A DNA stretch of 64,000 nucleotides from a virus. Taxonomy: Duplodnaviria; Caudoviricetes. The stretch covers positions 1 through 64,000 of the IMG/VR virus record IMGVR_UViG_3300015615_000196. One strand, 5' to 3'. The position numbers and the translations under genes are program-made. Of the stretch, positions 61,543 to 61,790 are shown piece after piece; the stretch's first letter is position 1; each line of letters starts with the position of its first letter. The notes below the pieces were generated by a model. The model ran no database searches and was not told where the DNA came from. It saw only the letters and a list, made by a program, of their open reading frames with translations.

Positions 61543-61574
61543 AAAATAAAAAACCCGATCTTTTGGATCGGGTC
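61543..61574 (-). terminator. intrinsic terminator immediately upstream of the tRNA array (putative attenuator)
   Basis: ACCCGATC-CAAAA-GATCGGGT then TTTTTATTTT abutting tRNA-Trp. Confidence 0.88.
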
Positions 61575-61601
61575 TTTTTGATTCTTTATTCTATCTACGA
61601 C

Positions 61602-61730
61602 TTAGATAGTGTTTAAGTCAAACGACCCGATATGAGAATTACTGCCTCTAAAATTGAGCGTAGAAATTCCTCCTGTTATGGTTGAACCACACCAGTTAAT
61701 GCGGGAAATATTTGACATTAGACTTTTCAT
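61602..61730 (-). CDS. putative 42-aa attenuator leader peptide (below ORF-track cutoff)
   Basis: MKSLMSNISRINWCGSTITGGISTLNFRGSNSHIGSFDLNTI*; contains ATCGGGTC complementary to the terminator 5' arm. Confidence 0.75.
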   Translation of the reverse strand: MKSLMSNISRINWCGSTITGGISTLNFRGSNSHIGSFDLNTI

Positions 61731-61764
61731 TTTTTCTTAAATCTTGAGCAAATGTACAGATAAA

Positions 61765-61790
61765 TACGCAATGCGCAAGAAAAGGTTTCA
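61765..61790 (-). promoter_or_regulatory. ECF-type promoter TGAAAC-N16-CGTA for leader + tRNA array
   Basis: Exact consensus about 35 nt upstream of the leader ATG. Confidence 0.8.

Follow-up and report, generated by a model that had tools for sequence, protein, structure and literature searches.

Candidate leader-peptide attenuators upstream of the tRNA arrays of a jumbo phage

The tRNA arrays and the cassette preceding array 1

The stretch of DNA analyzed here (the window, 64,000 nucleotides) represents the first 64 kb of a complete phage genome of 362,603 bp (362.6 kb) with direct terminal repeats. There were 61 tRNA calls in this genome, the majority of which fall within four arrays that are sorted by amino acid and that, in combination, cover all 20 amino acids:

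53816-61542, minus strand: array 1, 28 ARAGORN calls (Trp, Phe2, Thr4, Arg5, Ile3, Ser5, Asn2, Gly3, Leu TAG/AAG and Cys) with interspersed small co-directional ORFs
80.9-82.9 kb: array 2, tRNAs Tyr and Lys
94.6-97.8 kb: array 3, tRNAs Asp, Leu CAA/TAA, Ala, Glu, Met and Val
101.4-103.1 kb: array 4, tRNAs Pro, His and Gln

Neither tRNA-Asp nor tRNA-Tyr, which the earlier note had placed in array 1, was called there, and they are located in arrays 3 and 2, respectively. The same note was correct that tRNAs for Ala, Val, Glu, Gln and Pro are missing from array 1, but these are present in the other arrays, each of which has its own leader. No strong intrinsic terminator was found on the minus strand inside array 1. 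Directly upstream of the array is the gene for a 761-aa phrog_2426 protein (minus strand; 62074-64000 in the window, with its start at G000 64356 in the complete genome) that matches Ackermannviridae-type phage proteins at about 30%, and downstream is a vWA/TerF-like gene (52161-52928, minus strand), both of which are retained in many relatives. When the upstream protein was used to search for relatives, viral contigs gave no match and there was no exact record, in part because the window does not include its true start (64356). GenBank phages gave matches of only ~30-40%, so that no cultured relative was identified.

The host is probably a member of the Bacteroidota, and specifically of the Cytophagales, based on the phage bL12, whose best bacterial matches (62-69%) are almost all from Bacteroidota and mostly from Cytophagales, and on the presence at the leaders of the TAnnTTTG -7 box that is the consensus of that phylum (PMC9723704). 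The phage genome encodes two sigma factors, but a search of it revealed no gene for the beta subunit of a multi-subunit RNA polymerase, so that the arrays are most likely transcribed by the host polymerase. An alternative genetic code was considered and rejected, as reading through TAG or TGA raised the coding cover only slightly and both serve as stops.

The region between the phrog_2426 gene and array 1 has the promoter, 42-codon ORF and terminator abutting the first tRNA that had been described in the earlier note, and all three were confirmed in that layout. These and the associated elements are as follows:

61781-61787, minus strand: upstream AACCTTT element, 12 nt before CGTATTTA
61761-61768, minus strand: CGTATTTA phage promoter motif
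61749-61778, minus strand: Bacteroidota sigma-A-type promoter, with TTG (-33), a 19-nt spacer and the TAnnTTTG -7 box at 61756-61749
61602-61730, minus strand: leader ORF of 42 codons with a TAA stop
61635-61715, minus strand: putative sensing window, codons 6-32, comprising 27 consecutive array-1 codons
61618-61631, minus strand: antiterminator 5' strand, leader codons 34-38
61591-61609, minus strand: inner hairpin of 7 bp around the stop codon, joining the antiterminator strands
61567-61581, minus strand: antiterminator 3' strand, overlapping the terminator 5' arm
61548-61578, minus strand: intrinsic terminator hairpin and U-tract (-16.8 kcal/mol), ending 5 nt before tRNA-Trp (61542)

The tandem promoter spans 61787-61749 on the minus strand. 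The exact pairing of AACCTTT with CGTATTTA has five copies in the 362 kb genome, four of which precede tRNA-array leaders. The fifth (G000 190634) precedes a locus with a GOLLD RNA (L003:673-1094, or 191.2-191.6 kb of the genome; Rfam score of 159.8 bits, above the cut-off) followed by a tRNA-Gln, where no leader or terminator was seen; in the related phage G001 a similar promoter motif is found before a lone tRNA-Gln. Genome-wide, 41 of 429 ORFs have the GTATTTA core in the sense orientation within the preceding 100 nt, versus 12 in antisense, and many of the sense copies are in the large-gene region. This distribution suggests that GTATTTA is probably a late-type phage promoter, and it also ruled out our consideration of CGTATTTA as an antisense T4-type late promoter. 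The -7 box was found upstream of 66 of 71 leaders. A GTATTTA motif that had been noted near 61114 is indeed present (61120-61114, minus strand), downstream of the terminator and past the Trp and Phe tRNAs, without an AACCTTT element, and a second internal copy in array 1 starts at 54614. Both copies are possible attenuator-independent late promoters for the tRNAs downstream of them, and since they could give ungated late transcription, the earlier proposal that the tRNAs are expressed "only when host tRNAs fail" goes too far. Array-promoter variants (AACCTTT-N12-CGTATATA) are also present at window positions 52104 and 45577 on the minus strand, with no leader or terminator beside them.

The start of leader ORF 1 is in an A-rich context that has an A at -3 and no Shine-Dalgarno sequence. 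The residue counts reported previously for the leader were correct; however, the number of residues served by array 1 was revised from 38 of 42 to 36 of 41, since Asp38 and Leu39 drop out. The latter codon, TTA, is not read by the Leu TAG/AAG tRNAs of array 1, and both residues are positioned within the antiterminator stem. The enrichment against genome codon usage, a check that the earlier note had proposed, is substantial, with 36 of 41 leader codons specifying array-1 amino acids versus 19.6 expected (P=1e-7). The codons in the putative sensing window specify Ser, Asn, Ile, Arg, Trp, Cys, Gly, Thr, Leu (CUN) and Phe, which are the array's ten amino acids.

Arrays 2, 3 and 4 are each preceded by the same type of cassette, with leaders of 21, 39 and 27 codons, respectively. 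Each of these leaders also matches its own array (leader 2, 9/20 codons, P=3e-4; leader 3, 24/38, P=5e-5; leader 4, 8/26, P=1e-3), and in the leader-by-array matrix only the diagonal stands out, every off-diagonal cell being at or below chance. The resulting modules are C, F, G, I, L-CUN, N, R, S, T and W for array 1; K and Y for array 2; A, D, E, L-UUR, M and V for array 3; and H, P and Q for array 4.

Several other elements were identified in and near the arrays:

54875-54947 of the window, minus strand: tRNA with a CUA anticodon (amber-suppressor type), within array 1
L004:3721-3793: second CUA-anticodon tRNA
L002:4554-4664, minus strand: Y RNA-like (YrlA) element at the head of array 3 (29.7 bits, below the cut-off of 69)
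L001:948-2017, minus strand: genes for bL12 and an RNA ligase, inside the Lys/Tyr array 2
61337-61469, 57646-57733 and 55241-55315 of the window and about 4325-4485 of L002, all minus strand: tRNA-like elements below the default calling thresholds

The CUA tRNA in array 1 overlaps an ARAGORN Ser call (54837-54924), which is probably a miscall. Of 17 other array-1-type cassettes, at least 9 also have a CUA tRNA close to the end of the array, and TAG is still used as a stop by the phage genome despite these tRNAs. Y RNA-like elements of the YrlA type are permuted tRNA mimics; a weaker match to them (window 60233-60359) overlaps Arg tRNAs and is probably noise. Among the uncalled tRNA-like elements, one has a CCA anticodon arm and an insertion of roughly 60 nt, one has an 8-nt anticodon loop, one has a large insertion in the anticodon arm and one is degenerate. 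The bL12 and RNA ligase genes would share the attenuator of array 2, given their location inside it, and a gene for an NrtR-like Nudix regulator lies just upstream.

Competing RNA folds and the modelled position of the ribosome

The region of cassette 1 folds much better than shuffled sequences (z -4.3). The pairing of leader codons 34-38 with the 5' arm of the terminator, proposed in the earlier note, is what the nascent RNA is predicted to form (P=0.97) before the 3' arm of the terminator exists, and the antiterminator is predicted at -22.4 kcal/mol versus -16.8 kcal/mol for the terminator. A GACTTA/TAAGTC helix that was suggested to enclose the stop codon can form, but it is outside the predicted fold and is not kept in the related sequences G001 and L459. 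In the predicted fold the stop codon is instead enclosed by the neighbouring 7-bp hairpin, which is retained in G010 but not in more distant relatives, and possibly acts as a pause hairpin. When a ribosome was placed on the leader in the model, the antiterminator helix was intact up to codon 30 and broken from codon 32.

In the full-length RNA at equilibrium the terminator wins wherever the modelled ribosome sits, and consequently any switch has to operate kinetically, which is also true of known attenuators. The equilibrium result could also be read as favoring an explanation in which there is no switch, with the hairpin serving as a constitutive leaky terminator or an RNA-processing signal and the codon match resulting from chance or shared ancestry. 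In keeping with that explanation, many of the cassettes are related by descent, and in five Cytophagales genomes the four exact matches to the hairpin were ordinary terminators after genes or tRNAs, although this was a narrow test. We consider this explanation very improbable, as it does not account for four different leaders in one genome that each match their own array, nor for the compensated antiterminator, the sharp footprint edge and the reciprocal changes in leaders when tRNAs move that are described below.

The predicted folds of the other cassettes vary. No 1:2 protector helix was predicted in arrays 1 and 3, where the antiterminator forms in the naked RNA with P 0.97-1.0, and as such a failure to initiate translation of the leader should also switch these arrays on. 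The array 4 cassette shows partial protection. The modelled antiterminator occupancy was weak in two cassettes of this genome, 0.33 for the K/Y cassette and 0.6 for the P/H/Q cassette.

Conservation and co-variation of leaders and arrays in related phages

In order to identify related cassettes, patterns that specified only the promoter and the terminator were used, and these gave 158 distinct matches. A leader ORF ended just before the hairpin in 139 of the 158, versus 20% in shuffles, and a tRNA was present within 1.2 kb in 75 of the 88 matches with enough flanking sequence. The layout is common to about 155 cassettes (~70 from 23 phage records and ~85 from shorter contigs), in which leader indels are in frame. 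Leader class corresponded to array class wherever tRNAs were callable, with the single exception of G018, where neither K nor Y was called in the array behind a K/Y-type leader. The homologous arrays retain both the leader and the antiterminator, a feature on which the earlier note had made its proposal depend.

The antiterminator duplex was stronger than that of shuffled leaders in 155 of 155 cassettes in a duplex test. Cognate terminator arms also outperformed same-class arms from other phages in 48 of 53 array-1-type cassettes, and in 39/46, 30/42 and 11/14 cassettes of the other classes. Compensatory pairs between arm and leader included CCCGAC/GTCGGG (40 cassettes), CCCGAT/ATCGGG (37), CCCGAA/TTCGGG (7) and CCCCAT/ATGGGG (6), counts that somewhat favor pairing because the best-matching core was chosen. 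The terminator hairpin is likewise conserved with compensatory changes.

To locate the boundary of the matched codons, 67 cassettes were aligned on the antiterminator core, so that the edge was defined without reference to tRNA content. From codon -12 to codon -4 relative to the core, the matched fraction was 0.72-0.91, and it then fell to 0.21-0.29 from codon -3 on, compared with an expectation of 0.25. At this drop the downstream footprint of a ribosome would meet the helix, and no other single result argues as strongly for a switch that is set by ribosome position.

The earlier note had suggested determining if leader codons co-vary with array anticodons in related phages, and co-variation was found for Trp, Leu-CUN and Arg. 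The genome studied here, G001 and G010 carry tRNA-Trp in array 1, whereas the others have it in array 3. Among array-1-type leaders, a Trp codon was present in 3/3 with tRNA-Trp in the array and 0/15 without it, and among array-3-type leaders in 15/15 and 0/3, respectively. Leu-CUN codons were present in 11/11 array-3-type leaders whose arrays had CUN-reading tRNAs versus 1/7 without (the exception, G030, has an array that looks under-called), and in 6/7 versus 1/11 array-1-type leaders. Array 1 is split in both G018 and G026, where a new Thr/Arg/Ile leader accompanies the Thr/Arg/Ile part and the leader of the remainder is without Arg. When arrays were permuted within classes, the observed match was never reached in 20,000 trials. 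On a concatenated protein tree, the Trp move represents one event, the split one event and the Leu-CUN move one or two, giving three to four independent events, each of which shifted the leaders in the predicted direction; since the relatives share this history, the nominal P-values for co-variation are overstated. L448, from the other main lineage, has an array-1-type leader with a Trp codon, which is unusual for its lineage, and the same array has a UCA-anticodon tRNA (L448:2918-2991, minus strand), making it a possible further case of Trp co-variation.

The tracking of isoacceptors bears on what the leaders could sense. A stalled ribosome is blind to the difference between an uncharged and a missing tRNA, and amino-acid starvation is the input of all classical attenuators (PMC3082878), so that leaders sensing uncharged tRNA in the manner of the trp, his and thr leaders had to be considered. 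We regard this as unlikely, given that additional tRNA supplies no amino acids, that no biosynthetic genes were found among the ORFs tested in the arrays, and that Leu-CUN and Leu-UUR codons each follow their own tRNAs.

We also considered whether the leader peptides themselves could be functional, as trans-acting small proteins or as nascent-chain arrest peptides, with the codon match being secondary. Short motifs are conserved within leader classes, which would be consistent with this. However, four unrelated peptides share one RNA architecture, leader composition follows tRNA content, the sensing windows of array-1-type leaders have an aligned identity of only 38%, and their synonymous-site variation is reduced (0.33 versus 0.44-0.45 in neighbouring genes), and a role for the peptides is thus extremely unlikely. 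More wobble boxes were sampled by the array-1 windows than expected from genome codon usage (254 versus 235.7, sd 4.3, 0/1000), an excess that was weak in the P/H/Q leaders (32/1000) and absent in the K/Y and array-3 leaders. The low synonymous variation together with the wobble-box sampling is as expected if codons, and not the peptide, were selected. Some codons that are rare in phage genes are overused in leaders, for example in the array-3 type (ATA, 16 versus 6 expected; CTA, 14 versus 7). Array-1 leaders mostly lack Met, including those whose array contains a CAU tRNA (0/5), and these CAU tRNAs are probably lysidine Ile tRNAs.

A probable multivalent attenuator with tRNA genes as its output

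The core claim of the earlier note, that a codon-sampling leader-peptide attenuator gates the tRNA array, is supported by the layout, by the agreement of leader codons with array content, by the competing predicted folds, by the footprint geometry, and by conservation and co-variation. The cassette is very probably functional, and we consider it highly probable, judging from the sequences, that the cassettes are ribosome-mediated transcription attenuators with tRNA genes as their output in a negative-feedback loop. From this arrangement we infer that the leader is translated, how translation and transcription would be coupled in time, that read-through takes place, and what its physiological trigger may be. 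In the proposed mechanism, host RNA polymerase would start at the tandem promoter, a ribosome would load on the leader, and it would then race the polymerase over the ~83 nt that separate the U-tract from the antiterminator strand. If decoding is fast, the ribosome would reach codon 31-32 and cover the antiterminator strand, the terminator would fold and transcription would end 5 nt before tRNA-Trp. If instead codons 6-31 call for any tRNA class that is scarce, uncharged or has been cleaved, the ribosome would lag, the antiterminator would sequester the 5' arm of the terminator and the array would be transcribed. The new tRNAs would then read those same leader codons, speed decoding and thereby close the feedback loop.

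The cassette has the structural elements of a ribosome-mediated leader-peptide attenuator, namely an ORF, cognate codons, a terminator, an antiterminator and footprint spacing. Sub-threshold Rfam matches were obtained to Thr_leader (23.8 bits of 55) for cassette 1 and His_leader (33.7 of 49) for array 4. The enterobacterial leaders trpL, hisL, pheL, thrL and ilvGMEDA similarly have a short leader ORF with regulatory codons and an overlapping antiterminator and intrinsic terminator, with the position of the ribosome deciding the outcome. The previous statement that known attenuators use this geometry for one amino acid was too narrow, as the thr leader senses two amino acids and the ilvGMEDA leader three. 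Those leaders have enzymes as their output and one to three amino acids in runs, whereas in the phage cassettes the tRNA product would directly relieve the signal, and leader 1 has ten amino acids, each once or a few times. The phage system is further distinguished by being phage-borne and by four cassettes that tile all 20 amino acids. Two marks of trp and his attenuators are absent: there is no protector/pause hairpin, so that arrays 1 and 3 should read through when untranslated rather than super-attenuate, and there are tRNA genes and small phage ORFs downstream instead of biosynthesis or synthetase genes. The pheM-pheST attenuator of E. coli controls an aminoacyl-tRNA synthetase and so resembles the phage cassettes in applying leader-peptide attenuation to a component of the translation apparatus and in sensing charged tRNA supply, but it is chromosomal, with a single amino acid and a protein output. 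T-box riboswitches also mediate codon-specific antitermination governed by tRNA status, but they bind tRNA directly and need no translation, whereas the phage cassette has an ORF that is conserved in frame, and no T-box match was found by Rfam in cassette 1 up to E=1. The pheL leader-peptide attenuator has been described (PMC3082878), and leader-peptide attenuation has been reported as likely in Flavobacterium (PMC9723704).

The closest parallel in terms of the genes controlled is the Anabaena trn operon (L-array), which is induced by translational stress and has a repressor, TrcR (PMC8421152, PMC10272220). It too is a long mobile tRNA array that is normally silent and induced by impaired translation; it differs in having a protein repressor that acts at initiation and one signal for the whole array with no codon specificity, and PMC8421152 mentions neither attenuation nor a leader. 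In studies of phage tRNAs and tRNA-cleaving defences (PMC10264068; PMC7824862), tRNA arrays and RNA ligase are similarly seen as a likely replacement for host tRNAs, and a search of both texts found no mention of the phage tRNAs being sensed for or conditionally expressed. A T5 tRNA has been reported to counter PARIS, a tRNA-cleaving defence (PMC11464382). No published account of attenuator-controlled tRNA genes was found in a literature search whose coverage excluded most subscription journals. The cassettes would represent a known mechanism, multivalent leader-peptide attenuation, with a new kind of output.

The most likely trigger, we speculate, is that host tRNAs are lost during infection, whether to anticodon nucleases or to general decay. 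The modular design and the presence of an RNA ligase in array 2 fit selective tRNA damage by host nucleases, and we would give roughly even chances to a scheme in which four to five parallel isoacceptor-level attenuators in this Bacteroidota jumbo-phage clade monitor the whole code and switch on only those modules whose host tRNAs were destroyed, with the repair enzymes and amber suppressor riding along, as an inducible counter-defence against tRNA-cleaving immunity. A serious competitor, to which we give somewhat less than even chances, has the same switch acting as a graded dosage homeostat or timer when host tRNA pools are too small or too slow under heavy phage translation. The arrays would then be on routinely for part of infection and be throttled as phage tRNAs accumulate, with no host defence needed. 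This is compatible with the attenuator explanation, the trigger being the sole difference, and routine dosage control fits the wiring equally as well as selective tRNA damage does: the feedback follows from the layout alone, the overuse of some rare codons in leaders would be consistent with it, and the late-type motif forms part of the promoter. Four or five separately gated modules and the RNA ligase and bL12 genes in array 2 are nonetheless a better fit to selective damage, and the tRNAs and ligases of jumbo phages have been linked to tRNA-cleaving defences (PMC7824862; PMC10264068).

Why phages carry tRNAs is a question that has stood for more than 50 years (PMC10264068). A switch that responds to the decoding of its own codons would show that the phage reacts to a tRNA shortfall, and which module fires would separate codon compensation from the replacement of damaged tRNAs; if true, the modular counter-defence reading would make it possible to test directly the reason that tRNAs are carried by phages. 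Attenuation would be extended to a phage, to RNA genes as output, to ten amino acids per leader and to a whole code tiled by four sensors, and the leaders would represent ready-made natural reporters of tRNA status in Bacteroidota.
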